A stretch of DNA of 64,000 bases from the NCBI GenBank assembly GCA_964461915.1, contig CAYWVD010000001.1:26211-90210 (forward strand). The letters are read 5' to 3'. Origin of the DNA: an uncultured Candidatus Saccharibacteria bacterium. Its GTDB lineage: Bacteria; Patescibacteriota; Dojkabacteria; B142; OLB20. The notes under the pieces were generated by a model. That model saw only the letters and a list, made by a program, of their open reading frames with translations. It was not told where the DNA came from and did not search any database. Positions 3,925 through 58,641 of this stretch are shown here, one piece after another (the stretch's first letter is position 1; each line of letters starts with the position of its first letter). The position numbers and the translations under genes are program-made.

Positions 3925-3950
3925 CACATACTTATTAAACAAAATAAAAA

Positions 3951-4952
3951 ATGGCAAAAATATTTGTAACAGGCGGCGCAGGATATATTGGTTCTCATAC
4001 AGTATTAGCATTGATTCAAAAGGGCCACGAGGTGGTCGTTTTCGACAATCTTTCGAATAGTTCCTTAGATAATCTTCATAGAGTAGAAGATATCACTAAA
4101 AAACAAATCAAATTCATAAAAGGTGATATTTTAAATTCCATGGAACTTGACGAAGCCTTAAAAGAAGGCTTTGACGGGGCAATCCACTTTGCGGCTCTAA
4201 AAAGTGTAGTTGAATCGCATTCAAAGCCAATTTGGTATTACGAGAATAATGTTGCCGGGTCAATCAATTTATTTAAAGCTTTGATCAAAAACAATGTAAA
4301 AAATGTCATTTTCTCTTCATCAGCTTCGGTTTACGGCCAGCCAGAAAAACTTCCTGTCGATGAATCCGAACCTCTTAAACCAATGAGCGTTTACGCCAAA
4401 ACCAAAGCTATGATTGAAAACATTCTTGAAGATTCAGTCGAAGAAGGTTTAAATTCGATCCGACTTCGCTACTTCAATGTTGCCGGTGCCGATCCATCGG
4501 GCTTACTCGGCGAAGATCCTATGGCTATGGGAAATCTGATTCCAAGGATTTTCATGAGTTTAATCGGTAAATACAAACTGACAATTTATGGGAATCAATT
4601 CCCAACCAGGGACGGCTATTTGATCCGTGACTACATTCATGTATCTGATCTTGCCGATGCTCATGTTAAAGCCATTGAATACCTTCTTCAAAACCCCGGT
4701 TCAAGAGCAATCAACTTGGGAACGAACTCCGGAACATCAGTTTTAGAAATCATTAATGAAATCGAAAAAGTCACAGGGAAAAAAGTCGAAAGAGAAATCA
4801 TTGCCCCCCAACCGGGCGAGAACATCGAGATCTATGCAAACGCCGATCTTGCGAATGAGCTTCTAGGCTGGAAAGCCAAATATGATTACCACAAGATCAT
4901 TTCGGATGCATGGAACTGGTATAAAAACCTTCCTGAGTTTAAAAATAGTTGA
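3951..4952 (+). CDS. galE: UDP-glucose 4-epimerase (GalE family SDR)
   Basis: N-terminal TGGAGYIGSH Rossmann motif, and YxxxK within a 333-aa extended SDR. First gene of the glycan locus. Confidence 0.8.
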   Translation: MAKIFVTGGAGYIGSHTVLALIQKGHEVVVFDNLSNSSLDNLHRVEDITKKQIKFIKGDILNSMELDEALKEGFDGAIHFAALKSVVESHSKPIWYYENNVAGSINLFKALIKNNVKNVIFSSSASVYGQPEKLPVDESEPLKPMSVYAKTKAMIENILEDSVEEGLNSIRLRYFNVAGADPSGLLGEDPMAMGNLIPRIFMSLIGKYKLTIYGNQFPTRDGYLIRDYIHVSDLADAHVKAIEYLLQNPGSRAINLGTNSGTSVLEIINEIEKVTGKKVEREIIAPQPGENIEIYANADLANELLGWKAKYDYHKIISDAWNWYKNLPEFKNS

Positions 4953-5013
4953 AAGACTTGTATAATATTATGATTTTATAATTCAATTCATACTTCAAAA
5001 AGGAATCTAGACT

Positions 5014-5796
5014 ATGCTACTTTGGACGAAAATCGAGAATAAAAAATTTGATCTTCTAAAAGAACTCGTAAAAACTAGGTTCAAACTGAGGTACAATAAT
5101 TCACTATTGGGCTTTTTATGGGTTTTGATGAAGCCCTTAATGAGTTTTTTAATACTTTACTTTATCTTCACAGCTTTTAGAAGCGGTGGCAACGATCCTT
5201 CGTATGCCGCAAATCTCTTTAGTGGACTTATCTTGTTCTACTTCTTCCAAGAAGGAGTGACATTCGGAATGACATCATTAATGGATATGTCTGCAGTCAT
5301 CTTGAAAATTAACTTTCCAAGGCAAATTGCCGTATTCAGTTCGATCATTATGGCAATAATCAACCTGTCGATTAACTTTGTAATAATTATTGCAATCACA
5401 TTGATCACGGGCTTTAGACCGGAACTCGTCGGTGTTTTATACTTCTTCGCAATCATTACAATATTGCTACTTTTAGTATATGGAATCACACTATTCCTAT
5501 GCATAATCTATATTAAAGTTAGAGATCTCCAGAATATCATGGAATTATTTTTCCAGCTAATGTTTTGGGCTTCTGCAGTTTTCTACAACCTAGATGATAT
5601 GCAAGGTGAAACCGGAGCAGTAATTCGCGCCAACCCAATTGCAGTTTTAATCGATGCCGCCCGAAAAGGTTTTATACATGGAGAAATTGCCCACATAGAT
5701 TCTGTAGTCACAACAGGTGTTGTCGCAATACTTTTAGTTATTTTTGGAACAATATTCTTTAATAAAAACATAAAACGAATAGCTGAATTTTTTTAA
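5014..5796 (+). CDS. ABC-2 type polysaccharide export permease (Wzm/TagG-like)
   Basis: 260-aa, 6-TM ABC-2 permease immediately upstream of its ATPase partner. Confidence 0.75.
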   Translation: MLLWTKIENKKFDLLKELVKTRFKLRYNNSLLGFLWVLMKPLMSFLILYFIFTAFRSGGNDPSYAANLFSGLILFYFFQEGVTFGMTSLMDMSAVILKINFPRQIAVFSSIIMAIINLSINFVIIIAITLITGFRPELVGVLYFFAIITILLLLVYGITLFLCIIYIKVRDLQNIMELFFQLMFWASAVFYNLDDMQGETGAVIRANPIAVLIDAARKGFIHGEIAHIDSVVTTGVVAILLVIFGTIFFNKNIKRIAEFF

Positions 5797-5798
5797 AT

Positions 5799-6551
5799 AT
5801 GGACGAAAAGAAAACTATAATCGAAGTTAATCATGTCTCAAAGATCTTTGAGATTCCTAAAGAAAAACGCAACAGCGTAAAAAGCTGGTTCCTGAATCCT
5901 TTTCGCAAAATTCAAAAAGACAAATTCAACGCCCTAAACGATGTCTCTTTCAAAGTCAAAGAAGGCGAATTCGTTGGAATCATAGGCCGAAACGGCTCCG
6001 GTAAAAGCACCCTACTTAAAATGCTTGCCCAAATCTATGAGCCCACAAGCGGGGAAATTATTGTCCGAGGCGATTCAGTCCCATTTTTGGAACTTGGCGT
6101 TGGTTTTAACCCTGAACTTACCGGTCGTGAAAATGTTTTCCTAAACGGAACAATCCTTGGAATGAGCAAAAAATATCTCTGGAGCAAATTTGATGAAATC
6201 GTCGAATTCGCCGAGATCCGTGAGTTTTTGGATTTACAAGTAAAAAACTATTCAAGCGGTATGATCATGCGCTTAGCATTTTCTATTGCTATCCAAGCTA
6301 GGGCAGACATATTTCTGATGGATGAAGTCTTTTCTGTAGGTGACGGCGCTTTTCAAAAGAAGAGTCTTGCAAAAATGGAAGAACTCTTAAAATCTGGGGT
6401 CACCGTAATATTTGTATCACATTCCATGGAAAATATTAAGAAATACTGTAGCCGAGTAATAGTAATGGAGCATGGGCAAAAATATTTTGACGGAGATGTT
6501 ACTACCGCCATAGCCCATTATTCTAAATTATTGTCAGTTGATTTAAGTTAA
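5799..6551 (+). CDS. ABC transporter ATP-binding protein (Wzt/TagH-like, short form without a C-terminal carbohydrate-binding domain)
   Basis: Walker A (GRNGSGKST), signature (YSSGM) and Walker B (IFLMDE). Only 250 aa. Confidence 0.85.
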   Translation: MDEKKTIIEVNHVSKIFEIPKEKRNSVKSWFLNPFRKIQKDKFNALNDVSFKVKEGEFVGIIGRNGSGKSTLLKMLAQIYEPTSGEIIVRGDSVPFLELGVGFNPELTGRENVFLNGTILGMSKKYLWSKFDEIVEFAEIREFLDLQVKNYSSGMIMRLAFSIAIQARADIFLMDEVFSVGDGAFQKKSLAKMEELLKSGVTVIFVSHSMENIKKYCSRVIVMEHGQKYFDGDVTTAIAHYSKLLSVDLS

Positions 6552-6554
6552 TAA

Positions 6555-7565
6555 ATGAAGGAATTTAATCCCCTAATTACTATAATAATTCCGGTATATA
6601 ACGGAGAAAACTTTCTGTCGAAAGCTATCGATAGTGCCATAGGACAAACATACAAGAATATTGAAGTCCTAGTTGTAGATGATGGATCAAAAGATAAAAC
6701 GAAAGAAATTGTCCAAAAATTTTCGGATAAAAGAATTAAATATTTATATAAAGACAATGGTGGTGTAGCTTCTGCTTTGAACCTAGGCATTAACAATGCT
6801 AAAGGAGAATATATATCTTGGCTTTCACATGATGATTACTATTTATCCGATAAGCTCGAAAAGCAAGTAGGAATACTAAATGCGCTTGATCCTGAAGATA
6901 GAACTAAAACCATTATCTATTCTGCCTTCCAAGAAATGAACGAGGACAATATCATCTATGATAAATTCGAACCTCATAAAAAAGCTCCGATCGAGAAGTT
7001 GACTAATCCCTATTATCCTAATTTAATGGGATATGTGAATGGGTGTACCACTTTGATACCTGTTGAGTCACTTAAACAAATTGGCCTATTCGATGAAAAT
7101 CTTTTCTACACTCAAGATAGCGATATGTGGTATAGACTTTTCCCTAAGAATAAAGTCTATTATCAATCGGATATTACCTTGGTTTCTAGGAAACATAAAG
7201 ACCAGGGGACAAATAAGCAAGATCCTAAAAAAACAAAAGAGAATGATGATCTTTATAAAAATATGATCAATGGAATGTCGGCTGCTCAAATGATCGCACT
7301 AGAAGAATCCGAACTGGCATTATTAAAAACAGTTTTAGCTTTTCTATATGAATTAAAATATTTTGGGGCAATAGCTTATGTAGAAGAACGAATACAAAAA
7401 ATTGAAAAATTGACAGAAGAAAAAGCAAATCCGATAAAGAGATTATTAAAGCGGATCATAGCAAAGTTTCCAATTTATAGGGACATAAAGGTAATCAGGC
7501 TTGAACAAGAAAGATTAAACAAAAAGATAGAGTATATTAATCAAAATAAAATAAATAATGAATAA
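6555..7565 (+). CDS. Family 2 glycosyltransferase
   Basis: IIIPVYNGE...VLVVDDGSKD...DDY GT-A motifs. The N-domain is paralogous to the N-terminus of 12736..14637. Confidence 0.85.
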   Translation: MKEFNPLITIIIPVYNGENFLSKAIDSAIGQTYKNIEVLVVDDGSKDKTKEIVQKFSDKRIKYLYKDNGGVASALNLGINNAKGEYISWLSHDDYYLSDKLEKQVGILNALDPEDRTKTIIYSAFQEMNEDNIIYDKFEPHKKAPIEKLTNPYYPNLMGYVNGCTTLIPVESLKQIGLFDENLFYTQDSDMWYRLFPKNKVYYQSDITLVSRKHKDQGTNKQDPKKTKENDDLYKNMINGMSAAQMIALEESELALLKTVLAFLYELKYFGAIAYVEERIQKIEKLTEEKANPIKRLLKRIIAKFPIYRDIKVIRLEQERLNKKIEYINQNKINNE

Positions 7566-8595
7566 CAACTTTGACTCTAATAAATTTAAAAATAAAGTCT
7601 TATTAATAACTGGTGGGACTGGTTCTTTCGGAAATAAAATGTTGAAATTTTTTTTGGAGAATACTAATATCAAAGAAATACGCGTGTTTAGTAGAGATGA
7701 AGAAAAACAGGATAGAATGAGAAATGAACTTAATAACTCAAATGTAAAATACTATATAGGTGATGTCAGAGACTATTCCAGTATTGAAAGAGCTATGCAT
7801 GGCGTAAATTTAGTTTTTCATGCTGCTGCTTTAAAGCAAGTCCCTTCATGTGAATTCTTCCCAATGGAGGCAGTAAAAACGAATATAATAGGAGCCGAAA
7901 ATGTATTAAATGCTGCTGTTAATAATGATGTAGAAAAAGTTGTTGTTTTGAGTACAGACAAAGCGGTCTATCCAATTAATGCAATGGGAATGACCAAGGC
8001 TTTAATGGAAAAATTGATGGTTGCCAAGGCAAGATCAACTGATCCATCAAAGACCATCCTGTGTGCAACAAGGTATGGAAATGTAATGGCTTCCAGAGGT
8101 TCCGTTATCCCATTGTTTGTTAAACAAATTAAGGAAGGCAAGGATATTACTATTACCGATCCAGATATGACTAGGTTTTTAATGTCTTTAGATGAATCTG
8201 TTCAATTAGTATTGTATGCTTATGAGAATGCAAAATCTGGCGATATTTTTGTTCAAAAAGCTCCTGCTTCAACGATACTTGATCTAGCAAAAGCTTTGAA
8301 AATTATTTTTAAAGTAAATAATGAAATCAAAATTATTGGAACTAGGCACGGTGAAAAAAAGCATGAAACTCTTGTAAACAGAGAAGAAATGGATAAGGCA
8401 GAAGATCTAGGTAAATTTTTTAGAATACCGGCTGATGTAAGGGATTTGAATTATGCAAAATATTTTACAAAAGGAGATAAAGATATAACCCATCTAGAAG
8501 ATTATAACTCTGGGAATACACAAAGGTTAAATGTAGATGAAGTTGTTAAGAAATTACAATCTTTATCTTATATCAAAGAATTATTGGATAAATAG
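7558..8595 (+). CDS. UDP-N-acetylglucosamine 4,6-dehydratase/5-epimerase (CapE/FnlA/WbjB family)
   Basis: LITGGTGSFGN...EIRVFSRDEEKQ... AALKQVPSCEFFPMEAVKTNIIG ... IGTRHGEKKHETL..RIPADVRDLNY. This is near-diagnostic for the CapE/FnlA clade rather than generic CapD. Confidence 0.85.
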   Translation: MNNNFDSNKFKNKVLLITGGTGSFGNKMLKFFLENTNIKEIRVFSRDEEKQDRMRNELNNSNVKYYIGDVRDYSSIERAMHGVNLVFHAAALKQVPSCEFFPMEAVKTNIIGAENVLNAAVNNDVEKVVVLSTDKAVYPINAMGMTKALMEKLMVAKARSTDPSKTILCATRYGNVMASRGSVIPLFVKQIKEGKDITITDPDMTRFLMSLDESVQLVLYAYENAKSGDIFVQKAPASTILDLAKALKIIFKVNNEIKIIGTRHGEKKHETLVNREEMDKAEDLGKFFRIPADVRDLNYAKYFTKGDKDITHLEDYNSGNTQRLNVDEVVKKLQSLSYIKELLDK

Positions 8596-8625
8596 ATTGG
8601 ACAATAATACCAAAGGTCTTCTTAA

Positions 8626-8654
8626 TTGACAAAAATAAGTGCAGTGTTTACACT
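8626..8654 (+). promoter_or_regulatory. Possible internal sigma70-like promoter (TTGACA, 17 nt spacer, TACACT) ahead of the cupin gene
   Basis: TTGACA at 8626-8631 and a weak -10 TACACT at 8649-8654. Found only by eye. Confidence 0.2.
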
Positions 8655-8684
8655 CTTTATAATTATATTTTTAATTTTTACGAG

Positions 8685-9122
8685 ATGGAAAAAATTCAAG
8701 GTGGTTTGGCAGTTGATGATCGCGGGTTATTAAGGTTTGTAAATGGTTTTGATATATCAAAGGTAAAAAGATTTTATCAGGTAGAAAACTTCTCATTAGA
8801 TATGGTCCGGGCCTTTCATGGGCATATGAAGGAGGGAAAATATGTCTATGTTACATCAGGCAGCATATTACTTTGTGTTGTTAAGATGACCGACAAAGTT
8901 AAACCTTCAATAAAAGAACCCGTAGAAAGGATAATACTTTCCGCACGAAATCCACAAATTGTATTTATTCCAGCTGGTCATGCGAATGGTTTTAAGTCTT
9001 TAGAAGAAAATACTAATGTAATATTTTTTTCTACGAGTACTTTAGATGAGTCTAAGGGAGATGATTATAGATTCCCCTTTGATTATTGGGGAAAGGGGGT
9101 TTGGGAGATTGAAAATAGATAA
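8685..9122 (+). CDS. WxcM/FdtA-like cupin (sugar-nucleotide epimerase/isomerase domain, equivalent to the CapF C-terminal domain)
   Basis: 145-aa small beta-barrel protein. Its position between the CapE-like and SDR genes matches the cupin half of the bifunctional CapF/FnlB. Confidence 0.55.
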   Translation: MEKIQGGLAVDDRGLLRFVNGFDISKVKRFYQVENFSLDMVRAFHGHMKEGKYVYVTSGSILLCVVKMTDKVKPSIKEPVERIILSARNPQIVFIPAGHANGFKSLEENTNVIFFSTSTLDESKGDDYRFPFDYWGKGVWEIENR

Positions 9123-9142
9123 ATTTTTATATTAATAAAATA

Positions 9143-10030
9143 ATGAGTAAAAATAATAAAATATTAGTTTTAGGTAGTTCTGGTATGTTAGGTTCTATGG
9201 TTTATAAATATTTTAAAAGCAAGGGTTTTAATATAATAGGAACAGAAAGAACAGATAAAAAAGTAGCTGATAAAAAGTCCTTTGATGTTATAGAATTCAT
9301 ATATAACCCCAATAAGTTCTTGTATATAAAGGATTTTGATTACATTATTAATTGTATTGGGATAATAAAACCATATTGTAAAGACGATGATATGGATGGT
9401 GTATTAAAAGCCATACAAGTTAATGCGAATTTTCCTCATGTATTATCAAATTTTGTAAAAGATTCGAATGCAAAAATTATTCAAATAGCCACTGATTGTG
9501 TCTATTCAGGTAGCAAGGGACAATATGTTGAATCTTCTTTTCATGATGCGCTTGATGTTTATGGGAAAACTAAAAGTTTAGGAGAAGGTAGATTTGATAA
9601 CTTGTTAAATATTCGATGTTCAATTATTGGGCCAGAGTTAAAAAATAAATTAAGTCTATTAGAGTGGTTTTTGGCTCGTAAAGAAGGTGAGGAGGTAAAT
9701 GGTTTTATAAATCATTATTGGAATGGTATTACTACACTACAGTTTGCTCAATTATGTGAAAAAATTATTTCTCAAAATAGTTTTAAAGAACTAAGGAAAG
9801 AAAGCTATCTTCATCACTTTGCCCCAAACGAAATGGTAAGTAAATATGAATTACTTAAAATTTTTAATGAAGTTTTTAAATCAAATGTGGTTGTTAACAA
9901 AGGAAAGGCTCCTGTAAGTGTTGATAGAACACTTAAAACTGAACTCACTTTAATGAAAAAATATTTCAAAACACAAGTTATGGCAAAGGCTATAGAAGAT
10001 TTACAAAGTTTTATGAAATGTAATTATTAA
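9143..10030 (+). CDS. RmlD-like short SDR reductase (equivalent to the CapF/FnlB N-terminal reductase domain)
   Basis: N-terminal glycine-rich Rossmann motif (LVLGSSGMLGS). 295 aa. Confidence 0.6.
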   Translation: MSKNNKILVLGSSGMLGSMVYKYFKSKGFNIIGTERTDKKVADKKSFDVIEFIYNPNKFLYIKDFDYIINCIGIIKPYCKDDDMDGVLKAIQVNANFPHVLSNFVKDSNAKIIQIATDCVYSGSKGQYVESSFHDALDVYGKTKSLGEGRFDNLLNIRCSIIGPELKNKLSLLEWFLARKEGEEVNGFINHYWNGITTLQFAQLCEKIISQNSFKELRKESYLHHFAPNEMVSKYELLKIFNEVFKSNVVVNKGKAPVSVDRTLKTELTLMKKYFKTQVMAKAIEDLQSFMKCNY

Positions 10031-10043
10031 TATAAAAAATTCA

Positions 10044-11102: not shown

Positions 11103-11181
11103 GTGATTTTTGTCATAAGAATCGGGGATTGCTAAAAAAATAATATGTTAAACACAAATTTTCTGCATAATAAATCTTTAA

Positions 11182-12732: not shown

Positions 12733-12735
12733 CAC

Positions 12736-14637
12736 ATGCAAAAAAATATTAAAAAAAACGCTTTAGTTAGTATTGTGATCCCTGTTTATAATGGGGAGGA
12801 TTATATTAAAGAAGCTATTATAAGTGCCCTTAATCAAACATATAAAAATATTGAAATACTAGTTGTTAACGACGGATCAACAGACAAAACTGAAAGTATT
12901 ATTAAAAGTTTTGGAAATAGAGTAAGGTATTTTAGAAAAGAAAATGGTGGTGTAGCAACGGCATTAAATTTTGCTATCGATAAAGCAAATGGTGAATATA
13001 TTTCATGGCTATCTCATGATGATTTATATTATCCTAATAAAATTGAGAGACAAATTGCTGAGCTACAACAATTATCATATTTAGAAAGTATTAATACTAT
13101 AGTTTTTTCTAATTTTGATATTCTTGATCAAGATGAAAATAAGAAAAGTCTAGTTAAGCCAATTGAGCATTTTTCTAATGAAAACCCTCAATATTTAAAT
13201 GTGATGTTAAAAACCTTTTTCAATTCTTGGCTTAATGGGTGTACATTGCTTTTCCCTAAAATTATATTTAAAAAATTTGGAGATTTTGACATCAATCTTA
13301 GAACAGTACAGGATTACCATCTATTTATTAAATTTTTTAAAAAAGGGGTTAGGTTTCATTATTTAAAAGATACATTGGTTACATCAAGACATCATGGTGG
13401 TCAGGATACAAGGAAATTAATCGATAAGCATATTGTTGAGTTAAATTATTTGTATAAATATGCTTTCGATGAATTTAAGAAATATTTCCAATCTCTTCCA
13501 TTTTGGGAATTTGATTGTTTTTTAAACATTATAAAAACTCGTCGGCTAGATCATGTATATGCACATATGCTTAGCGAATGGGCAAATGTTGGAGTGGAAT
13601 CGGACAAAGAAACTATCTGGCTGTATTGGGAAAATAAGCCAAAACAATCAACCCCTGATTATATAAGATTATGCTGGAAAACTCTTGTAAAAAATAATCG
13701 TGGAGATTTTAACATTAAAATACTTACGGATAATAATATTGCCGAATACTTGCCCGAAATAAACCATATTGATTTGCTTAAAGAAATTGCGCATAAGGCG
13801 GATTATATTAGATTCGCATTATTAAATAAATATGGAGGGATATGGTTAGATAGTGATTTTATTTGTTTTAGGAGTTTAATAGAAATAAAATCAATTATAA
13901 AAAATAACAATTTCATTACTTCTGGCTATAAACATAATACCAATAAATTTTTCCCACTTATCGGCTTCTTATCTTGTAATAAAGATAATTCAATTTGTAA
14001 AAAAGTTTTAACCCAAATGGACTTATTCATCAAAAAGATTGATATAAATGATGAACAACCGGAGTGGGATGAATTTGGTGGATGGAATCTTTCAAAGGTA
14101 TTAGAAGAGAAGAGTACAAACACTCATAACTTTGATATTAAATATTTTGATCCATTTGGTGTTTATAAAGATGACAATAATAGTTATTTTAGTACACGAT
14201 GTATTAATATATTAGAAGTATTAGATAATCAATTTAGATTTGCATTTGGTCAATATTTAGCAAATAGTGTATTAAATGCGGATATTAAAGGGCGTTCAGA
14301 GCATGAAATTTTAACGAGGGGAGATAATTTAGGGGAACTCTTTAGATTAGGACTTGGGTTTATATATTATCCAAATATAAGTAATATTCAAACCCATGAA
14401 AAAAGCATTATAGGAAAAGAAAGTGGCATCCGGGTTAATTTAAAACGAGTTATTATCAGGATCTTAAATATTTTACCCCACTATAGGAAATTAAAACAAA
14501 TTGAAATTGAATCACAAGATAATCAGCACAAATTAAATATCTTAGACAATAAGCTAGTTGAATACATAGAAAATAAAAGGAAAGTGTATGAATCTATAAA
14601 TTCCTTTATGAAAGAAGAGAATCCCAAGCAGAAATAG
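12736..14637 (+). CDS. Bifunctional glycosyltransferase: N-terminal GT2 domain plus C-terminal GT32-like 'sugar-binding DXD' (Gly_transf_sug/Caps_synth) domain
   Basis: N-terminus SIVIPVYNGE..VLVVNDGSTD. C-terminal half ADYIRFALLNKYGGIWLDSDFICF (DXD). 633 aa. Confidence 0.7.
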   Translation: MQKNIKKNALVSIVIPVYNGEDYIKEAIISALNQTYKNIEILVVNDGSTDKTESIIKSFGNRVRYFRKENGGVATALNFAIDKANGEYISWLSHDDLYYPNKIERQIAELQQLSYLESINTIVFSNFDILDQDENKKSLVKPIEHFSNENPQYLNVMLKTFFNSWLNGCTLLFPKIIFKKFGDFDINLRTVQDYHLFIKFFKKGVRFHYLKDTLVTSRHHGGQDTRKLIDKHIVELNYLYKYAFDEFKKYFQSLPFWEFDCFLNIIKTRRLDHVYAHMLSEWANVGVESDKETIWLYWENKPKQSTPDYIRLCWKTLVKNNRGDFNIKILTDNNIAEYLPEINHIDLLKEIAHKADYIRFALLNKYGGIWLDSDFICFRSLIEIKSIIKNNNFITSGYKHNTNKFFPLIGFLSCNKDNSICKKVLTQMDLFIKKIDINDEQPEWDEFGGWNLSKVLEEKSTNTHNFDIKYFDPFGVYKDDNNSYFSTRCINILEVLDNQFRFAFGQYLANSVLNADIKGRSEHEILTRGDNLGELFRLGLGFIYYPNISNIQTHEKSIIGKESGIRVNLKRVIIRILNILPHYRKLKQIEIESQDNQHKLNILDNKLVEYIENKRKVYESINSFMKEENPKQK

Positions 14638-14672
14638 AGAATTAATAATTTAATTTTATTCATAAATTAATA

Positions 14673-15794
14673 ATGAAAGTCTTAACAATCCTAGGCACTA
14701 GACCAGATATAATAAAATTGGCTATGACCATTAAAGAATTAGAAAAACACGTAGAACATGTTTTAGTTCATACTGGTCAAAACTATGATTATGAATTAAA
14801 TGAAGTTTTTTTTAAGGATTTAGAGCTCAGGAAGCCAGATCATTTCCTTGGTGTCGCGGGTGATAATTTCGCACAAACAATTGCCAATGTTATTGAAAAA
14901 TCCGATCAAATACTTGAGATAGAAAAACCTGATGCTATTTTAGTCTATGGTGATACAAATAGTTCACTGTGTGTGATACCTGCCAAAAGAAGGCATATCC
15001 CAATTTTCCACATGGAGGCAGGTAATAGGTGTTTTGACCTTAGGGTACCAGAAGAAATTAACAGGAAAATCGTTGATCATACAAGTGATATAAACATGGT
15101 CCTTACCGAACACGCGAGAAGATATTTAATTGCAGAAGGTATTAGACCCGAAACAATTATCAAAACCGGTTCATCTATGATGGAATTGTTTGAAAAATAT
15201 AAAGATCAAATTGAAAATTCAAAGATTCTAAATGACATAAACTTAGAATCAAAGAAATATTTTGTTGTTAGTGCACATAGAGAAGAAAATATAGATTACC
15301 CGGAGAATTTTTCAAAATTAATTAACTCGATTAATAAAATAGCTGAGAAATACCAACTCCCTATTATCTTTTCTACGCATCCACGGACAAGAAAGAAAAT
15401 TGAAGAGACTAAAGACTTACAGCTAAATAAACTAGTGCAATTTCACAAACCTTTTGGGTTTTTCGATTACATTAAACTTCAAAAGGAATCTTTATGTGTA
15501 ATAAGTGATAGCGGAACAATTTCTGAAGAATCATCTATTCTATCTTTTCCTGCGATCACTATACGGAATGCTCATGAAAGACCTGAGGGGATGGATGAGG
15601 GGACTTTAATTATGTCTGGACTTGACGAACAAAGTGTACTAGATGCTATAAATGTTACGATTAATCAATATAAAGAAGAAACAACGCCTTTTAATATTAT
15701 AGCGGATTATAATGTTAAAAATGTTTCTAAAAAAGTCGTTAAGATTATTATGAGTTATACAGGGTATGTTAATAGAGTAACATGGCGAAAGTAA
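14673..15794 (+). CDS. UDP-N-acetylglucosamine 2-epimerase, non-hydrolysing (CapG/FnlC/WecB family)
   Basis: ILGTRPDIIKLA...HTGQNYDYELNEVFFKDLELRKPD, near-canonical for the CapG/FnlC subgroup. 373 aa. Confidence 0.9.
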   Translation: MKVLTILGTRPDIIKLAMTIKELEKHVEHVLVHTGQNYDYELNEVFFKDLELRKPDHFLGVAGDNFAQTIANVIEKSDQILEIEKPDAILVYGDTNSSLCVIPAKRRHIPIFHMEAGNRCFDLRVPEEINRKIVDHTSDINMVLTEHARRYLIAEGIRPETIIKTGSSMMELFEKYKDQIENSKILNDINLESKKYFVVSAHREENIDYPENFSKLINSINKIAEKYQLPIIFSTHPRTRKKIEETKDLQLNKLVQFHKPFGFFDYIKLQKESLCVISDSGTISEESSILSFPAITIRNAHERPEGMDEGTLIMSGLDEQSVLDAINVTINQYKEETTPFNIIADYNVKNVSKKVVKIIMSYTGYVNRVTWRK

Positions 15795-16912
15795 TTGAAG
15801 GAGTAAAAAGCAGAGATAAAAAAATTGATCTGTTACTTGCCCTAGGAATAATAATGGTAGTAATGGGTCATAAATATCAGCCGACATATTTTTATTTCCC
15901 TGCATACACTTTCCATATTCCTTTATTCTTTTTTATATCCGGATATTTAGCAAAAGTTAATTTAAATATTAAAGATAAGATCGCTTTTTTTATAAAAAAA
16001 GCTAAAATCTTATTATTGCCTTACTTCGTATTGAATATGTTTTTTGCAATCATTACATATCTTTTATCAACCAAAAGTATTAATTTAGGTGTTGTTTTAA
16101 AGTTTGACAGCATAAATGCCATTATTGAATCGTTAAAAACCTTTTTTATTCAACCCTTTATTTCTGGTAATCAATTTTCCCTTTTTATCCCTGCTTGGTT
16201 TGTTTTACAACTATTTATTGTACATATTGTTTTTCAATTATTGCACCTCAAAAATAAATATTGGTTATTATTTGTTTATATAGCCTGTACTATATCTACA
16301 GTCTTTTTATTAGAGAGGGGGTTAAATTCTTATACTGATTATCACCTATTAATAATAAGAACTGGTTATAGTTTATTTTTCTTTTTGAGTGGGTATATTT
16401 TAAAGAGGTTCGGTAAAGTATTAGAAAAAATTGTTTATTCTGAAGTTTTTTTAATTATCGCATTTATTCTTGTAATACAATTAATTAATACAGGTGGAGT
16501 TACTCAATATGCAATAGTTTTTGGAAATATTTTAAATGAAAAAGTAATAATCCCGCTATTGAATTCACTGTTAATTATATTAATTTCTTTTAATCTTGCA
16601 AACGTATTGGCAAAAGTTATAAGTGATAAATCAATATTCCTTAAAATTGGCCAACACACCTTTAGTATAATGGTTTGGCACTTAAGTGTTTTTTTTATAA
16701 TTAACCTTGTTATATATAAATTGGGCTTAATAGATGGGGCAAGTTTAGATAATGTGTATTTTGGATACAATATATCGCAAATATGGCCTATTTATATTTT
16801 TTTAGGGATATTTATACCTATAAAATTATCTTCAATTTATAATATTTTTATTAATAAATTTAAGTATAGTTTAAAAGGGAATAAGTTCATTAAAAATTTA
16901 TTAAAACAATAA
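15782..16912 (+). CDS. Acyltransferase family 3 membrane protein (putative glycan O-acetyltransferase)
   Basis: 376-aa, roughly 10-TM protein with an N-terminal ...MGHK...FFFISGY pattern typical of Acyl_transf_3. Confidence 0.65.
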   Translation: MAKVIEGVKSRDKKIDLLLALGIIMVVMGHKYQPTYFYFPAYTFHIPLFFFISGYLAKVNLNIKDKIAFFIKKAKILLLPYFVLNMFFAIITYLLSTKSINLGVVLKFDSINAIIESLKTFFIQPFISGNQFSLFIPAWFVLQLFIVHIVFQLLHLKNKYWLLFVYIACTISTVFLLERGLNSYTDYHLLIIRTGYSLFFFLSGYILKRFGKVLEKIVYSEVFLIIAFILVIQLINTGGVTQYAIVFGNILNEKVIIPLLNSLLIILISFNLANVLAKVISDKSIFLKIGQHTFSIMVWHLSVFFIINLVIYKLGLIDGASLDNVYFGYNISQIWPIYIFLGIFIPIKLSSIYNIFINKFKYSLKGNKFIKNLLKQ

Positions 16913-16956
16913 TACATGTTTAAATTATTTTGACAGTTATTTCTTTGAATTAAAAA

Positions 16957-18081
16957 ATGTCCAATAATCCTAAAATCTCAGTAATTATGCCTGTATATAA
17001 TGACGAAAATTATGTCTCGTTGGCAATCAATTCTATTTTAGAGCAAAGTTTTCAGGATTATGAGTTAATAATCATAGATGATGGTTCAACGGATAATTCC
17101 TTAAAAGTTATTAAATCATACAAAGATCCGAGAATTAGGGTTATCAAAAACAAGATTAATCAAAAACTCCCGACGACCTTAAATACTGGTATAGAAGTGG
17201 CTAAGGGTGAGTATATCGCACGGATGGATGCAAATGATATTAGCTATAAAAATAGATTTGCATTGCAGATAGAATTCATGGAAAAACACACAGACATTGG
17301 TGTGTGTGGGACAAATTTTAGAACTGTTGAGGAATCAGGGAATGTACTTTGGGATAAATTTTGGAAGAAATCGGACCACCCTTTAGAATGGGATTTGTTA
17401 TGGGAAAATCCAATAGGTCACACAACTGTGATGTTAAGGAAGAGTATTATTGATAAATATAATTTTAGATATAGAAAAATATATGCCGAAGATGGTGACC
17501 TTTGGTGTAGAATGGCGACTCGAACTAGGCTGGGTAGAATCAATAAAGTTTTAATGGATGTTTTGATACAAAAAGATTCCGAATCAGTAAATAACAGAAA
17601 GCTCCATATGGCACAGGCTATCAAATCTAGTTTTACTTATGCTAAATGGTTAACCGAAAAACCCGTTCCTGATTTTTATAACAATTTCTTAATTTATTCT
17701 AAAGTGATTGGTAAAAATAATATCCCCATACCTAATAATAATACCGTCCAAGAATGGTTTTGGGATTTAGAACACTCAATTATTAGTAAATTCAATCTAT
17801 CTGATAAAGATAAAATCTTTATTAAAAAAGATATTCTTAAAAGAAATGTTGAATATTTTGAAGATCAAATTTTAAAGATAAAAGAACAAATTAATTTAAA
17901 AGATCAGAAAATAAATTCAGAAAACGACTATTATATTGCACTAAACAATGAAATCCAAAATAATTATAACTTGCTTAAAAGTAATTATGATAACCTAAAA
18001 AGTGGCTATGATGCATTATTAGATTCAAGATCATATAAAATAGCTAAAAAAATGAGAGATTTATATAGGATTTTTAAATAA
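16957..18081 (+). CDS. Family 2 glycosyltransferase with a C-terminal coiled-coil tail
   Basis: VIMPVYNDE..IIIDDGSTD..DAND GT-A motifs. C-terminal roughly 90 aa K/N/E-rich, predicted coiled coil. Confidence 0.8.
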   Translation: MSNNPKISVIMPVYNDENYVSLAINSILEQSFQDYELIIIDDGSTDNSLKVIKSYKDPRIRVIKNKINQKLPTTLNTGIEVAKGEYIARMDANDISYKNRFALQIEFMEKHTDIGVCGTNFRTVEESGNVLWDKFWKKSDHPLEWDLLWENPIGHTTVMLRKSIIDKYNFRYRKIYAEDGDLWCRMATRTRLGRINKVLMDVLIQKDSESVNNRKLHMAQAIKSSFTYAKWLTEKPVPDFYNNFLIYSKVIGKNNIPIPNNNTVQEWFWDLEHSIISKFNLSDKDKIFIKKDILKRNVEYFEDQILKIKEQINLKDQKINSENDYYIALNNEIQNNYNLLKSNYDNLKSGYDALLDSRSYKIAKKMRDLYRIFK

Positions 18082-18086
18082 AACTA

Positions 18087-18887
18087 ATGAGTATATTTAA
18101 AAAGATTTTAAATTTAATTGGTAATAAGAATAATTCTGGAAAAGATTATACCCTAGCTGTTTTTATTGTTAACTATAATATGTCTGAAAGGACAGATGCA
18201 TTAGTCGAACATCTAAAAGAATACGAGACTTGGCCTATGGATGTTTATGTGATTGATAACGGTTCTGATATTCAAAAACCTTCAAAATATACTAATGTCT
18301 TTATTAAAAAAAACATTCAAACATGCAACGGTTGGCTTAAAGGTTTGTCTGTTGCTAAAAAGTCTAAGAAGAAATATTTTGCATATATGTTTTTAATTAC
18401 ATCTGCCGAATTTGAGAATAAAGCAGAACAATTAACACTGATGATGAAGTATTTAATTGAAAATAAGAATGCTGTAGGGATCCACCCCTCTCTTTCAAAA
18501 TCTAGTACTACATATTGGAAGCACTTAATTAATAGGGGGAAAGCACATCCAAGAAAGACTTGGATGATTGATAATATTGCTTCAATTTTTAAAGCAAATT
18601 GGTTTGATAGTATCGGTGGGTTTGACAAACGAATGATTTATGCATGGGGGATAGATTTAGAGGTATCTTATATTTCCCGTAAACAAGGTAAAGATATTTA
18701 TGTTGATGACAGGGTTGAGGTTACAAAAATAACAAATATTGGATATAAAATGAACAGGATGAATATGTTAGCTGAGGACAGAGTAAAATTAGCTTCAGAT
18801 AATATGGAAGAAATCTTAACTATGAAGTATGGAAAAGATTATATGAAAATTATGCTTAACGATTATGTAACAGATGAAATGAAATAG
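18087..18887 (+). CDS. Hypothetical protein, possibly a divergent GT2-like (WbbL-type) glycosyltransferase
   Basis: The VFIVNYN...VIDNGSD arrangement resembles GT2 'xVTYN' rhamnosyltransferase-like proteins. Weak evidence. Confidence 0.35.
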   Translation: MSIFKKILNLIGNKNNSGKDYTLAVFIVNYNMSERTDALVEHLKEYETWPMDVYVIDNGSDIQKPSKYTNVFIKKNIQTCNGWLKGLSVAKKSKKKYFAYMFLITSAEFENKAEQLTLMMKYLIENKNAVGIHPSLSKSSTTYWKHLINRGKAHPRKTWMIDNIASIFKANWFDSIGGFDKRMIYAWGIDLEVSYISRKQGKDIYVDDRVEVTKITNIGYKMNRMNMLAEDRVKLASDNMEEILTMKYGKDYMKIMLNDYVTDEMK

Positions 18888-19592
18888 TTAAATTATTTGT
18901 TCAAGTCCCCCTACAAGAAATTCAGGATCATATCTATCAAATTGCGAATATCTTTTTTTATATCTATTTTTCAGATTTAATACATTTGCTCTAAATTCTG
19001 AATGAACCTTGTTAAAATTTCCAATAACTTTTTCATCATTAAAAACGAGTTTTGCATCTTCAATACTTAAATTAGTCTGTTGTGAATTTTCAAACCAGTA
19101 TGTTCTTTTGCTAATGGGGAAAGTTATTAACAATAAGCCACCTGGCTTTAAAAATTCCACACTTTTTTTATAAAGTTTTTCAATCATATTTTTTTGATTA
19201 TGTTCTATAGCAGATAACCAATAGATAATATCAACACTTTTGGGAGTGAACTTATCAAAATCTAAAAATTCAACAAAATAATCAGCATTCGTCACTCCTT
19301 CTTGGTGGCAATATCCTGTAGGTCGATCTAAACCGATAATTTTTATGCCTAATCTTTCTTCAACTGCAGAATGAAAGGGAGAATTACCGCAACCAATATC
19401 AAATATTATTGGGTCTTTAAGTTTATTTTTTTCTAAATATTTTTTCATTTTTGAATATAGCCAAACATGGTCAATGACATAATTCCAGCCAATCCAACAG
19501 TTTATATCTAAGTAATCCATCCCTTTTGTTTTAAAATATGCAATTAGTTCTTTATCTTTTGCAATATCTTTTGGATTGATTATTGTTATCAT
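18888..19592 (-). CDS. Class I SAM-dependent methyltransferase (probable sugar/glycan O-methyltransferase)
   Basis: Motif I IFDIGCGNSPF and motif post-I/II LKPGGLLLITFP. Convergent to the glycan operon. Confidence 0.65.
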   Translation of the reverse strand: MITIINPKDIAKDKELIAYFKTKGMDYLDINCWIGWNYVIDHVWLYSKMKKYLEKNKLKDPIIFDIGCGNSPFHSAVEERLGIKIIGLDRPTGYCHQEGVTNADYFVEFLDFDKFTPKSVDIIYWLSAIEHNQKNMIEKLYKKSVEFLKPGGLLLITFPISKRTYWFENSQQTNLSIEDAKLVFNDEKVIGNFNKVHSEFRANVLNLKNRYKKRYSQFDRYDPEFLVGGLEQII

Positions 19593-33103: not shown

Positions 33104-33258
33104 GGGAATATATAACTGAAATATAATAAATATATTGTAAACTAATTTGAGGGCAATAGCAAGGAAACATCGTGCAGAATGGCATAATAAAATTTTTTCT
33201 TTGCCATTATTAAATAAATTTATGTTCTGATATAATGATTATTGTTAAAAAGTTAGAT

Positions 33259-33330
33259 GGCCCTATCGTCTAACGGTTAGGACACAAGGTTCTCAACTTT
33301 GCGATCGGAGTTCGATTCTCCGTAGGGTCA
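33259..33330 (+). tRNA. tRNA-Glu (anticodon CUC). CCA is not encoded.
   Basis: A cloverleaf can be drawn by hand. Acceptor GGCCCTA/TAGGGTC has one G-U pair. D-loop TAACGGTTAGGAC. Anticodon stem CAAGG/CTTTG with loop TTCTCAA (CTC at 33292-33294). T-arm CGGAG-TTCGATT-CTCCG. Discriminator A. Confidence 0.8.
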
Positions 33331-33333
33331 TAC

Positions 33334-50819: not shown

Positions 50820-50853
50820 TACAATGTTAATAATATTTTTTTAATAAAATTGT

Positions 50854-56975: not shown

Positions 56976-57023
56976 GTATGATGTATTATTGATTTAACCT
57001 ATTATAAGTATCATAATTAAACA

Positions 57024-57398: not shown

Positions 57399-57408
57399 AA
57401 TCTAAGAA

Positions 57409-58602: not shown

Positions 58603-58641
58603 TAATATATATTTACTAAATTATTTTAAAATTCACTAACT

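Follow-up and report, generated by a model that had tools for sequence, protein, structure and literature searches.

Does the surface-glycan locus in the window (the whole stretch of 64,000 nucleotides analyzed here) encode a complete CapE/CapF/CapG pathway to UDP-L-FucNAc, as a first-pass annotation had proposed, or is its rare sugar made by another route? The gene cluster itself is of the ordinary ABC-transporter-type surface-sugar kind, and the assignment of such a locus to a CPR cell is supported; it is the rare-sugar pathway that departs from the Staphylococcus CapE/F/G trio. The host, described earlier as a putative CPR-like cell, belongs to the Candidatus Dojkabacteria (CPR, with a tiny genome), to which its NusA is up to 86% identical.

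The locus has a + strand run of 14 co-directional genes (3951..18887, genes 1–14), next to which lie two convergent genes on the – strand that are putative members of it, a methyltransferase (gene 15) and a cytidylyltransferase (gene 16). An ORF check recovered every gene at the position first annotated, and the searches of Pfam, NCBIfam and PDB on which our family calls are based (Table 1) bear out the earlier family names for all but gene 14. Overlaps of a few nucleotides, reported as a general feature, are present at only two of the 13 junctions (8 and 13 nt), and the remaining junctions are gaps of 2–89 nt. Sixteen glycan genes packed this densely do not form a chance pattern. The G+C content is 0.25–0.32 over genes 4–16 versus 0.35–0.40 in the flanks, but no mobility genes flank the locus, which had been described as horizontally mobile-looking. 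The FnlA–cupin–reductase–SDR8 junctions recur on an independently assembled Logan contig (2.4 kb).

Table 1. Genes of the glycan locus and an LCP gene elsewhere in the window, with the principal database evidence
Gene	Product	Coordinates	Strand	Evidence
1	galE, UDP-glucose 4-epimerase	3951..4952	+	TIGR01179 376 bits (cut-off 262)
2	ABC-2 permease, Wzm/TagG-like	5014..5796	+	PF01061 57.8 bits; weak matches to galactan Wzm/KpsM models
3	ABC ATPase, Wzt/TagH-like, 250 aa	5799..6551	+	PF00005
4	GT2 glycosyltransferase	6555..7565	+	PF00535 115 bits
5	CapE/FnlA-type UDP-GlcNAc 4,6-dehydratase/5-epimerase	7558..8595	+	Polysacc_synt_2, Polysacc_syn_2C; PDB CapE 465 bits
6	RmlC/FdtA-class cupin, 145 aa	8685..9122	+	PF00908 42.8 bits; FdtA 14.7 bits
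7	Predicted RmlD-fold NAD(P)H 4-ketoreductase, Qnl/WbvR type	9143..10030	+	PF04321 62 bits
8	SDR8, Cj1427-like extended SDR, GalE-like	10044..11102	+	PDB 6vo6 139 bits, 33.5% identity
9	GT4 glycosyltransferase, 516 aa	11182..12732	+	PF00534, PF13692
10	GT2–GT32 (Caps_synth/Gly_transf_sug) fusion	12736..14637	+	PF00535 118 bits; PF05704 63 bits; PF04488 42 bits
11	FnlC/QnlC-type non-hydrolyzing UDP-6-deoxy-L-HexNAc 2-epimerase	14673..15794	+	Epimerase_2, TIGR00236
12	Membrane O-acyltransferase, Acyl_transf_3	15782..16912	+	PF01757 71 bits
13	GT2 glycosyltransferase, EpsE-like	16957..18081	+	PF00535 117 bits; NF053739 145 bits (below cut-off)
14	266-aa protein of no matched family	18087..18887	+	GT-A-like N-terminal motif (sole clue)
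15	Class I SAM methyltransferase, convergent	18888..19592	-	PF08241, PF13649 (weak)
16	CTP_transf_3 cytidylyltransferase, distant NeuA/PseF relative	19610..20266	-	PF02348 80 bits
	LytR-CpsA-Psr (LCP) protein, outside the locus	57409..58602	+	PF03816 82.6 bits

The export end of the locus resembles the TagGH/Wzm–Wzt systems with LCP proteins (wall teichoic acid, rhamnose-glucose polysaccharides): an ABC-2 permease lies beside its ATPase, many cytoplasmic glycosyltransferases are encoded (seven or eight domains in total), an LCP gene is present and no Wzx/Wzy is found within the window. It differs from them in having neither glycerol- or ribitol-phosphate genes nor a TagO/WecA-type initiating phosphoglycosyltransferase in the 64 kb, Pfam scans included, and every transporter score falls under the equivalog cut-offs. 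In NCBIfam the ATPase, which has no C-terminal carbohydrate-binding domain, comes closest to TagH (191 bits), followed by galactan Wzt (182 bits), each under its own cut-off. The cell is presumably monoderm, and the LCP protein is a candidate ligase that would join the exported polymer to peptidoglycan if, as we infer, it serves this locus. Gene 14 matched nothing in Pfam, NCBIfam or PDB searches; its label of GT2-like has no other basis than an N-terminal ‘FIVNYN...VIDNGSD’ motif spotted by eye. The methyltransferase gene may belong to the locus, to judge from its position and low G+C (0.279). Gene 16, named a CMP-sugar-type cytidylyltransferase, is indeed of the CTP_transf_3 family but is a weak relative of PseF (69 bits, cut-off 206) and NeuA (PDB PpNeuA, 60 bits), and no NeuB/PseI, PseC or DegT genes occur within the 64-kb window.

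The S. aureus CapE/F/G enzymes correspond to P. aeruginosa WbjB/C/D and to FnlA/B/C, and the first and last of these have clear counterparts here (∼65% identity for gene 5 and 56% for gene 11). Gene 5 groups with CapE and A. baumannii FnlA (4j2o, 463 bits) and not with FlaA1/PseB (257 bits) or CapD (216 bits) in PDB searches, and it is 64–67% identical to E. coli FnlA proteins. The NCBIfam model TIGR04130 gives 510 bits, under the FnlA equivalog cut-off of 730, and the PseB model gives 337. When judged by the hallmarks of CapE-type enzymes (PMC3699295), the protein keeps the D134–K135 pair, the MxxxK motif (M143xxxK147) and the latch. Gene 11 is not a hydrolyzing, NeuC-type 2-epimerase, since the wecB model TIGR00236 scores 258 bits, above its cut-off of 210, and the NeuC model only 77 bits, far below its cut-off of 236. 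Its identity is 56% with E. coli FnlC and 55% with QnlC, compared with 28% for K-12 WecB, and in a neighbor-joining tree it clusters with E. coli FnlC/QnlC. Both genes are equally close to FnlA/FnlC and to their qnl counterparts.

The middle of the trio is where the earlier reading is not supported. The window lacks the defining enzyme, a 370-aa SDR joined to a PF14667 Zn-cupin, and has a cupin and a reductase of other families; no CapF/FnlB ortholog is present. To judge from its sequence, gene 7 stands in the place of FnlB and is unrelated to it: it scores 28 bits with E. coli FnlB and 32 bits with RmlD, and matches neither the FnlB model NF047837 nor the CapF structures. The E. coli O163 reductase, in contrast, is aligned over its full length with 31% identity (136 bits, E 5e-43). 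That gene sits between fnlA-like and wecB-like genes, and we call it qnl-type from this gene order. The AF2 model of gene 7 (pLDDT 94.2) has RmlD as its closest structures. In a neighbor-joining tree RmlD is distant, and the O163 reductase comes out as sister to the family of gene 7; this family branches off deeply beside the enterobacterial reductase, as a sister group not nested inside it.

The gene 6 cupin belongs to a family of 1145 members in which R42, H45, H47, E50 and K52 are invariant and the catalytic tyrosine of RmlC is replaced by phenylalanine. Its AF2 model (pLDDT 95.8) has RmlC, QdtA and MlghB as Foldseek neighbors, RmlC-type structures coming first and QdtA, FdtA and WlaRB giving TMt values of ∼0.69–0.72. 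It is predicted to be a C3 (and/or C5) epimerase acting on a 4-keto nucleotide sugar. As the cupin of CapF it was rejected: PF14667, the family of the CapF C-terminal cupin, matches E. coli FnlB with 156 bits but does not match gene 6, hhalign aligns the gene 6 family profile to RmlC with E 3.8e-5 and to the FnlB cupin only with E 0.04, CapF is not among the top 50 structural neighbors and a sequence comparison with FnlB is not significant.

Gene 8 (SDR8) is less similar to GalE (26% identity) and RmlB (21%) than to 6vo6, which we take to be Cj1427; SDR8 proteins are 32–36% identical to that structure and both have an R.R.DL(L/V)VN motif. The family motifs (S[ST]CS[VI]YG, VGD[PG]AC and R.R.DLV.N) contain no TDE/TDK dehydratase acid–base pair, and S-T-C-S stands where Cj1427 has T-N-S. 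Because the acid/base residues are missing, SDR8 may either merely oxidize C4 or carry out a non-canonical 4,6-dehydration, and a 4-keto sugar is its predicted product in both cases.

Genes 6–7–8 constitute a self-standing conserved module that the first-pass annotation missed. We compared 160 loci encoding gene 7 relatives (80 genome and 80 viral loci), drawn from Asgard archaea, CPR, other bacteria and viruses. The reductase is accompanied by cupin and SDR8 in 65 of the 80 genome loci and ∼33 of the 80 viral loci, and by an FnlA/PseB-like dehydratase in 6/80 and ∼39/80, respectively; the SDRs of two loci (L002 and L003) are 70% and 62% identical to gene 8. The two partner sets never occur together (0/160), so that the window alone (1/161) has both front ends. 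Reductases of the two partner types interleave in the tree, and cupin–SDR8 fusions are found in Asgard archaea, a betaproteobacterium and a spirochaete. Three loci (L042, L063 and L087) have a contiguous FnlA (60–67% identity) followed by a gene 7-type reductase and no cupin, and in L042 and L063 a gene 11-type 2-epimerase (51–54%) comes next. FnlC-type 2-epimerases also accompany SDR8 and cupin (L024 and viral L093–L097). The module is a widespread, uncharacterized and putative alternative entry module beside the rare-sugar pathway. In viral loci L103 and L109 a canonical STDEVYG dehydratase lies directly upstream of SDR8, a poor fit to the simple view of SDR8 as the entry enzyme.

The fnlA–qnlAB(C)/WbvB–WbvR–WbvD systems for UDP-L-QuiNAc (V. 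cholerae O37, E. coli, Proteus and Rickettsia) likewise combine an FnlA-type enzyme, a ∼290-aa RmlD-like 4-reductase and an FnlC-like 2-epimerase. In the window, however, the three genes are non-contiguous, gene 11 lying 4.6 kb from gene 7 and the cupin and Cj1427-like SDR being intercalated; genes like WbuB or WbuC are absent (similarity of gene 9 to WbuB is not detectable), and the host is a CPR cell with ABC-transporter export in place of Wzx/Wzy. The C4 stereospecificity of the RmlD family can flip, as between RmlD and the 6-deoxy-L-talose reductase Tll, and with gene 7 at 31% identity this leaves some room for L-PneNAc/L-FucNAc. In Proteus, all QuiNAc O-antigens go with fnlA–qnlAB and all FucNAc ones with fnlABC (PMC5560731), and UDP-L-QuiNAc arises from the fnlA–qnl gene order (PMC4379981, PMC6765297), which is also the order in L042 and L063. 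Given this correlation, the missing CapF/FnlB and the qnl-like gene 7, UDP-L-FucNAc, the product first predicted, is the less likely one; the evidence favors UDP-L-RhaNAc/UDP-L-QuiNAc, stereochemistry not being readable from sequence. We consider it moderately probable that the locus makes a polyprenol-linked, ABC-exported cell-wall glycan whose special sugar comes from a Qnl/Wbv-type and not a Cap/Fnl-type route.

In the pathway that we infer (substrates, step order and stereochemistry alike), the special sugar would be a UDP-2-acetamido-2,6-dideoxy-L-hexose. Gene 5 would turn UDP-GlcNAc into a 4-keto-6-deoxy-L intermediate, gene 7 would reduce it at C4, most likely to UDP-L-RhaNAc, and gene 11 would epimerize C2, most likely giving UDP-L-QuiNAc. 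Where FnlA is missing, SDR8 may start from a common UDP-sugar and turn it into the 4-keto sugar, and the C5/C3 epimerization otherwise done by FnlA may fall to the cupin. The two front ends in the window would then lead into one reductase, resulting in redundancy or in 6-deoxy plus 6-hydroxy products, as in the C. jejuni HS:3/HS:4 heptose clusters, where a dehydrogenase and a dehydratase have one epimerase and one reductase in common (PMC10680097).

Other assignments of genes 6 and 7 must be weighed against this Qnl/Wbv-type route. CapF carries its reductase as an N-terminal SDR and its epimerase as a C-terminal Zn cupin (PMC5393024). The cupin and SDR found beside a CapE-type gene could therefore be its functional analog: gene 6 would epimerize C3, gene 7 would reduce C4 to the L-talo configuration and the CapE/F/G pathway to UDP-L-FucNAc would be complete. 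An R-x-x-H-x-H...K...E motif that gene 6 shares with the FnlB cupin in an alignment, weak PF14667 matches of some gene 6 relatives (21–23 bits) and the equal closeness of genes 5 and 11 to FnlA/FnlC fit such a split, but the homology of either gene to FnlB goes no deeper than the fold, the profile and structure comparisons of gene 6 point away from CapF, the relationship of gene 7 to the qnl-type reductase is clear, and relatives of gene 7 adjoin FnlA without any cupin in three loci. We regard a split CapF as unlikely. It is less probable still that the cupin is an FdtA/QdtA-like 3,4-ketoisomerase and that gene 7 reduces a 3-keto sugar, the product then being a HexNAc rearranged at C3/C4 that has no relation to the Fnl/Qnl sugars. 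Loss of the RmlC tyrosine together with an H45-x-H47 spaced as His49/His51 of FdtA suggests that gene 6 might be an isomerase, and its length, the ketoisomerases among its structural neighbors and FdtA-family scores that in some members reach 35 bits are in line with this. However, PF00908 beats FdtA in all 10 members tested, RmlC-type structures rank first, HxH is present in the cupin of CapF/FnlB as well, a proven epimerase domain (PMC5393024), gene 7 is of 4-ketoreductase (RmlD/Qnl) lineage, and the aminotransferase that usually follows a ketoisomerase is absent.

A further possibility, which we hold only tentatively, is that two sugars pass through one core. Gene 8 would act as a C4-dehydrogenase on UDP-GlcNAc/UDP-ManNAc and keep O6, the cupin would act at C3/C5 and gene 7 at C4 to give a non-deoxy UDP-L-HexNAc, gene 5 would feed in the 6-deoxy analog and the polymer would contain both. 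The C. jejuni GDP-heptose enzymes Cj1427 (C4-dehydrogenase), Cj1430 (cupin C3/C5-epimerase) and Cj1428 (C4-reductase) have the same oxidize–epimerize–reduce logic; 6vo6 is the closest characterized relative of gene 8, family motifs are alike and the cupin is of RmlC class. As in HS:3/HS:4, the window has a dehydratase and a dehydrogenase-like SDR by one epimerase and one reductase, and the presence of both front ends here alone is hard to square with full redundancy. The substrate, by contrast with C. jejuni, is probably a UDP-HexNAc and not a GDP-heptose, because the module associates with Epimerase_2 and a Qnl-type reductase, and the reductase is RmlD-like. Against two products, the mutual exclusion of the partner sets and the interleaved reductases suggest that both front ends supply the same intermediate, FnlC-type 2-epimerases occur with SDR8 and cupin, and a dehydration could use the family-specific cysteine of S-T-C-S as its catalytic base instead. 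To our knowledge, free L-HexNAc sugars bearing a 6-hydroxyl are almost absent from nature.

If SDR8 does dehydrate, the module would be an exact logical copy, on UDP-GlcNAc, of the RmlB/RmlC/RmlD pathway to dTDP-L-rhamnose, from which it differs in that the T-D-E triad of RmlB is missing from SDR8 and the RmlC tyrosine from the cupin; identities are ∼20–30%. A parallel to the Qnl/Wbv-type route is found in Megavirus chilensis, where Mg534/Mg535/Mg536 (UDP-L-RhaNAc/L-QuiNAc) are a PseB-like inverting dehydratase, a short RmlD-like 3-epimerase/4-reductase and a 2-epimerase; Mg535 is likened here by description, and a similar pairing is seen in the viral loci that have a dehydratase beside the gene 7 relative. 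Of the viral structural matches, the best is to a Fadolivirus protein of 562 aa, at 33% identity.

We read the locus as a Qnl-type 6-deoxy-L-HexNAc pathway that, judged by sequence comparison, appears to be joined to a widespread, uncharacterised SDR–cupin front end. Its identity as a surface glycan locus is borne out by gene order and gene families (ORF map, Pfam and NCBIfam). The ORF map returns 14 plus-strand ORFs with coordinates identical to those in the first-pass annotation, and their co-direction stands; the overlaps of a few nucleotides described there are limited to one of 8 nt between genes 4 and 5 and one of 13 nt between genes 11 and 12, the other junctions being gaps of 2–89 nt with tight spacing. 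Among the profile matches, galE passes the cut-off of TIGR01179; the others identify an ABC-2 permease, an ABC ATPase of 250 aa that lacks a C-terminal glycan-binding domain and is best matched by TagH/Wzt models, three clear GT2 proteins, one GT4, one GT2–GT32 fusion and an Acyl_transf_3 protein. In gene 14, initially called GT2-like, an N-terminal GT-A-like motif is visible, but Pfam, NCBIfam and PDB searches gave no profile or solved-structure match. By position and composition only, the convergent methyltransferase and cytidylyltransferase are putative members of the locus. The G+C content is 0.25–0.32 across genes 4–16 versus 0.35–0.40 in the flanks, and a promoter and terminator scan yielded counts equal to the shuffled expectation, hence uninformative. 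The CPR-like character of the host is confirmed by NusA, which is up to 86% identical to Candidatus Dojkabacteria/candidate division WS6 proteins. Proteins identical to those of the window occur on an 808,157-bp NCBI contig. The remaining ORFs of the window include housekeeping genes (ParB, Fmt, NusA, Obg, BipA, RNR and IleRS) and many without a family match.

Features of the window discussed in the text
Feature	Position	Strand	Remarks
Genes 1–14 of the glycan locus	3951..18887	+	
Gene 5, CapE/FnlA-type dehydratase	7558..8595	+	
Gene 6, cupin	8685..9122	+	
Gene 7, reductase	9143..10030	+	
Gene 8, SDR8	10044..11102	+	
Gene 11, 2-epimerase	14673..15794	+	
Gene 14	18087..18887	+	
Convergent class I methyltransferase	18888..19592	-	weak profile match
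Convergent CTP_transf_3 cytidylyltransferase	19610..20266	-	profile match
1289-aa protein	20324..24193	-	Amidase_2 (N-acetylmuramoyl-L-alanine amidase), subtilase S8, TIG, FG-GAP repeats
GT2	29133..29822		
GT2 and abutting 536-aa ORF	29133..31432		
tRNA-Glu(CTC)	33258..33331	+	Rfam
PMT_2 (GT-C) protein	36151..37347		
IleRS-like class I synthetase	46210..50193	+	1327 aa; DUF5915 C-terminus
Two tandem signal peptidase I genes	50205..51483	+	Peptidase_S26
Second glycan gene cluster	54765..62878		
Double GT4	54765..56975	-	736 aa
LCP-family protein (candidate LCP ligase)	57409..58602		Pfam
PD40/CarboxypepD_reg protein	58642..60633		
GT4	61107..62195	-	
GT2	62192..62878	-	

As first annotated, gene 5 is of the CapE/FnlA type and not PseB or CapD. 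It comprises Polysacc_synt_2 (PF02719, 356 bits) and a C-terminal Polysacc_syn_2C domain (PF08485, 73.6 bits), and against PDB sequences it scores higher with S. aureus CapE (465 bits) and A. baumannii FnlA (463) than with H. pylori FlaA1 (PseB, 257) or CapD (216). The FnlA model TIGR04130 gives 510 bits, below its equivalog cut-off of 730, versus 337 for the PseB model; the FnlA-like genes of E. coli O163 and O119 are likewise unnamed by PGAP, and gene 5 shares 64–67% identity with three FnlA-type proteins of E. coli. The hallmarks of CapE are a D-K pair, MxxxK in place of YxxxK and a conserved latch loop (PMC3699295). Gene 5 carries 'STDKAVYPINAMGMTK', containing the D-K pair and MxxxK, and its latch residues align with CapE 287–309. 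A PseB-like first step together with the cytidylyltransferase might have suggested a route to pseudaminic or another nonulosonic acid. This is rejected because gene 5 is CapE-type and the window contains no aminotransferase (DegT included), PseG/H or NeuB/PseI gene, which also leaves the cytidylyltransferase without an evident partner. We also note that the E. coli gene closest in DNA to gene 5 belongs to the O119 strain 2009C-3133, where the cluster of this FnlA-type gene includes two DegT aminotransferases and a formyltransferase, with no reductase or 2-epimerase adjoining the gene. FnlA-type enzymes also feed other L-sugar branches, as this cluster illustrates (L-RhaN3N derivatives, according to a title cited in PMC7685785).

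The CapE/CapF/CapG trio is not complete as had been claimed, since CapF/FnlB is missing. In this enzyme one polypeptide carries an SDR reductase at its N terminus and a Zn cupin epimerase at its C terminus (PMC5393024). A member of the family is expected to be ~370 aa long and to have a PF14667 cupin; the reference FnlB, from E. coli O25, matches PF14667 with 156 bits over residues 254–363. A ~370-aa protein of this architecture is absent from the locus: PF14667 is silent on gene 6, the FnlB model NF047837 does not match gene 7 and gives gene 8 43.8 bits versus a cut-off of 500, and CapF structures are absent among the PDB matches of genes 6 and 7. Comparisons of sequences, profiles and structures lead us to reject a CapF split into genes 6 and 7. 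Gene 6 scores 42.8 bits with PF00908 (RmlC) and 14.7 bits with FdtA, and its family profile aligns in hhalign with RmlC (E 3.8e-5) and, unconvincingly, with the FnlB cupin (E 0.04). The neighbours of its AF2 model (pLDDT 95.8) are RmlC-type epimerases, 3,4-ketoisomerases and C. jejuni heptose epimerases, CapF not being among the top 50. This cupin family of 1145 proteins retains two catalytic residues of RmlC, His as H45 and Lys as K52, has Phe in place of the catalytic Tyr, and carries invariant H47 and E50 as additions relative to RmlC. We interpret gene 6 as an epimerase that acts on a 4-keto sugar at C3, C5 or both. A ketoisomerase is a minor alternative: the HxH...E pattern also occurs in FdtA-type ketoisomerases, and an 'H51N' FdtA mutant is among the structural neighbours of the gene 6 model, but the pattern is present in the FnlB cupin too.

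Gene 7 has an RmlD fold, with a PF04321 match, the size of its class (~290 aa) and T-D...YxxxK; RmlD structures are closest to its AF2 model (pLDDT 94.2), and 'ATDCVYSG...YGKTK' is invariant across its family. Its bit scores are 28 with FnlB and 32 with RmlD. One E. coli O163 strain carries, in succession, an FnlA-like gene, a gene for a 291-aa 'dTDP-4-dehydrorhamnose reductase family protein', and wecB-like, GT4 and WbuC genes. This is, as assigned from gene order, the fnlA–qnl arrangement that makes UDP-L-QuiNAc (PMC4379981), for which the enzymes WbvB/WbvR/WbvD have been described (PMC6765297). Gene 7 aligns over its full length with the O163 reductase, the one enterobacterial reference used for this comparison (31% identity, 136 bits, E 5e-43), and the O163 protein is sister to the gene 7 family in an RmlD-rooted tree. 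In Proteus, all QuiNAc O antigens occur with fnlA-qnlAB and all FucNAc ones with fnlABC (PMC5560731); FnlA is common to both routes and the type of reductase decides the sugar. Because gene 7 is qnl-type and reductase type tracks the sugar in Proteus, L-RhaNAc/L-QuiNAc is the favoured product of the window, bearing in mind that 31% identity cannot fix C4 stereochemistry. L-FucNAc, the product originally proposed, is probably wrong given the qnl-type reductase and the lack of FnlB. In two related genome loci, L042 and L063, the reductase lies between FnlA-type and FnlC-type genes; in the window genes 5 and 7 are separated by the cupin gene, and gene 11 follows 4.6 kb further on from gene 7.

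The assignment of gene 11 as CapG/FnlC-like rather than NeuC-type hydrolysing is upheld. It passes the non-hydrolysing wecB model TIGR00236 (258 bits; cut-off 210) and fails the NeuC model, with 77 bits, far under 236. An ordinary WecB making UDP-ManNAc is rejected on the basis of 28% identity to E. coli K-12 WecB, as against 56% and 55% to the E. coli proteins FnlC and QnlC, and a neighbour-joining tree places gene 11 in a clade with FnlC/QnlC. Equidistant from the E. coli FnlC and QnlC, it does not separate UDP-L-PneNAc (Fnl) from UDP-L-RhaNAc (Qnl) as substrate.

Homologues of gene 7 number 5736 proteins in a database search and occur in 304 loci of species-representative genomes. We inspected four contigs, after which tblastn searches that used reference proteins covered 80 genome loci. 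The reductase is beside a gene 6 type cupin and a gene 8 type SDR (SDR8) in 65 of the 80; the 'dehydratase-looking' SDR of such loci is a homologue of gene 8 (for L002 and L003, 70% and 62% identity), not of gene 5 (~24%). A single protein of 462 aa unites SDR and cupin in Asgard archaea (Promethearchaeota, Hermod-, Odin- and Hodarchaeota), a betaproteobacterium and a spirochaete. An Epimerase_2 gene usually comes next after the module, in three subtypes that are each nearer FnlC than WecB. Only three of the 80 genome loci combine the reductase with a true FnlA (MxxxK; 60–67% identity), and in two of these, L042 and L063, an FnlC-type epimerase follows the reductase; three further loci have a PseB-type (YxxxK) dehydratase, and the cupin is absent in all six. 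Viral relatives of gene 7 (178 contigs, including GVMAG giant-virus bins) are 35–47% identical and occur with either front end: among the 80 contigs examined, ~39 have a Polysacc_synt_2 dehydratase directly upstream, ~33 have SDR8 and the cupin, and none has both. Since the partners are exclusive and the tree intermingles reductases of either context, SDR8 with the cupin and the FnlA/PseB-type enzymes would be alternative suppliers of the substrate that the reductase uses. Of 161 loci, the window alone carries both front ends, and its junctions (FnlA–cupin–reductase–SDR8) recur on a separately assembled Logan contig. Among BFVD structures, gene 7 is best matched by a Fadolivirus protein of 562 aa (33% identity), whose annotation reads dTDP-6-deoxy-L-lyxo-4-hexulose reductase. 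On a JGI metagenome contig (L006/L007, 10997..13457), LicD, a PEP mutase, a TPP-enzyme fragment and a nucleotidyltransferase follow the module, which points to a phosphonate (2-aminoethylphosphonate-type) decoration of that glycan.

The best solved relative of SDR8 is 6vo6/6vo8 (139 bits, 33.5% identity), and its three subtypes show 32–36% identity to 6vo6 versus 26% to GalE and 21% to RmlB. We take 6vo6 to be C. jejuni Cj1427, a GDP-heptose C4-dehydrogenase feeding the cupin epimerase Cj1430 and the C4-reductase Cj1428. This C. jejuni GDP-heptose pathway and an assay for the dehydrogenase have been described (PMC10680097); an enzyme of the Cj1427 type would be expected to release a 4-keto product and to recycle its tightly bound NADH with alpha-ketoglutarate. 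The strict motifs of SDR8 are S[ST]CS[VI]YG, VGD[PG]AC, YxxTK and [FY]G.S.R.R.DLV.N, and R.R.DL(L/V)VN is common to SDR8 and 6vo6. No D/E stands behind the catalytic Ser/Thr, the dehydratase acid/base positions being Cys-Ser. The acid/base residues of 4,6-dehydratases are T-D-E in RmlB and D-K in PseB and PglF. The D-K pair is also that of CapE (PMC3699295). With no TDE/TDK/SE motif, SDR8 is rejected as a canonical 4,6-dehydratase. A simple UDP-hexose 4-epimerase is unlikely in view of the strict synteny, the cupin fusion and the S-T-C-S sequence; plain epimerases nearby in Asgard loci read ASSSSxYG, so that the Cys is a hallmark of the SDR8 family.

Two reactions, which we consider about equally probable, are left to weigh. 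As a C4-dehydrogenase, SDR8 would open an oxidise–epimerise–reduce route whose product keeps its 6-OH, as its motifs and nearest relative, 6vo6, would suggest. As a non-canonical dehydratase, it would follow an RmlB/C/D-like route to the 6-deoxy sugar of FnlA, in keeping with its exclusivity with FnlA/PseB-type enzymes, the common reductase and the FnlC-type epimerases. Phage-borne copies must begin from a host nucleotide sugar, which makes SDR8 very likely the module's entry enzyme. Two viral loci fit this poorly: in L103 and L109 a canonical 'STDEVYG' 4,6-dehydratase (3710..4711 and 3728..4732, respectively) lies directly upstream of SDR8, cupin, reductase and 2-epimerase, and SDR8 may not always be the entry enzyme.

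C. jejuni HS:3/HS:4 offers a direct precedent for the window, with its dehydratase, dehydrogenase-like SDR, single epimerase and single reductase: there a C4-dehydrogenase and a 4,6-dehydratase share one epimerase and one reductase, and the products are one 6-hydroxy and one 6-deoxy heptose (PMC10680097). Our tentative interpretation, in which doubt still outweighs confidence, is that the cupin and SDR8 constitute an uncharacterised two-protein front end, sometimes fused, that replaces FnlA/PseB in hundreds of loci, SDR8 being a new Cys-dependent UDP-GlcNAc 4,6-dehydratase or a UDP-HexNAc C4-dehydrogenase. If so, the window would make two related L-sugars through a shared reductase. If SDR8 is a C4-dehydrogenase, the module would provide a route to non-deoxy L-hexosamines, which to our knowledge have yet to be found in glycans. 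This nucleotide-sugar module of three or four genes (SDR8, cupin and RmlD-like reductase, in some cases plus a 2-epimerase) is very widespread, the SDR8–cupin front end ranging over Asgard archaea, CPR bacteria, other phyla, phages and giant viruses. Its genes are labelled 'dTDP-4-dehydrorhamnose epimerase/reductase family' in databases and its entry enzyme is without assigned chemistry; once assigned, that chemistry would give an annotation to thousands of genes across Asgard archaea, CPR bacteria and viruses. The surface glycans of CPR episymbionts are probably what hosts and phages meet, and we know of nothing on their chemistry. Replacing L-FucNAc by a Qnl-type product plus an extra module alters the target for mass spectrometry or NMR.

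ABC-transporter-dependent export agrees with the gene content, in that the ABC-2 permease adjoins the ATPase and no flippase or polymerase family (Wzx/Wzy) occurs among the locus ORFs. A WecA similarity search of the window gave no initiating polyprenyl-phosphate glycosyl-1-phosphate transferase (best E 0.16), and Pfam scans covering all but a few window ORFs of <200 aa gave no initiating transferase family. No homologue of WbuB or WbuC, the E. coli partners of fnl/qnl genes, was detected in the window. The LCP-family protein and further GT4/GT2 genes at 54–63 kb, where a second glycan gene cluster is located, would fit peptidoglycan attachment of the exported polymer in a monoderm cell.

Directly beside the glycan locus, the 1289-aa multidomain protein has the look of a large secreted or surface lytic protein and could be relevant to an episymbiotic lifestyle. 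Elsewhere in the window, a GT2 abuts a 536-aa ORF without a family match; this pair and the PMT_2 protein could be lipid-linked sugar donor and transferase pairs. PMT_2 is found beside the module in L002 and L006, and such pairs often adjoin it in related loci. The tRNA-Glu is the only RNA gene found in the 64 kb. The IleRS-like synthetase is unusually long, with its catalytic domain in two matched stretches, and is followed by the tandem signal peptidase I genes.
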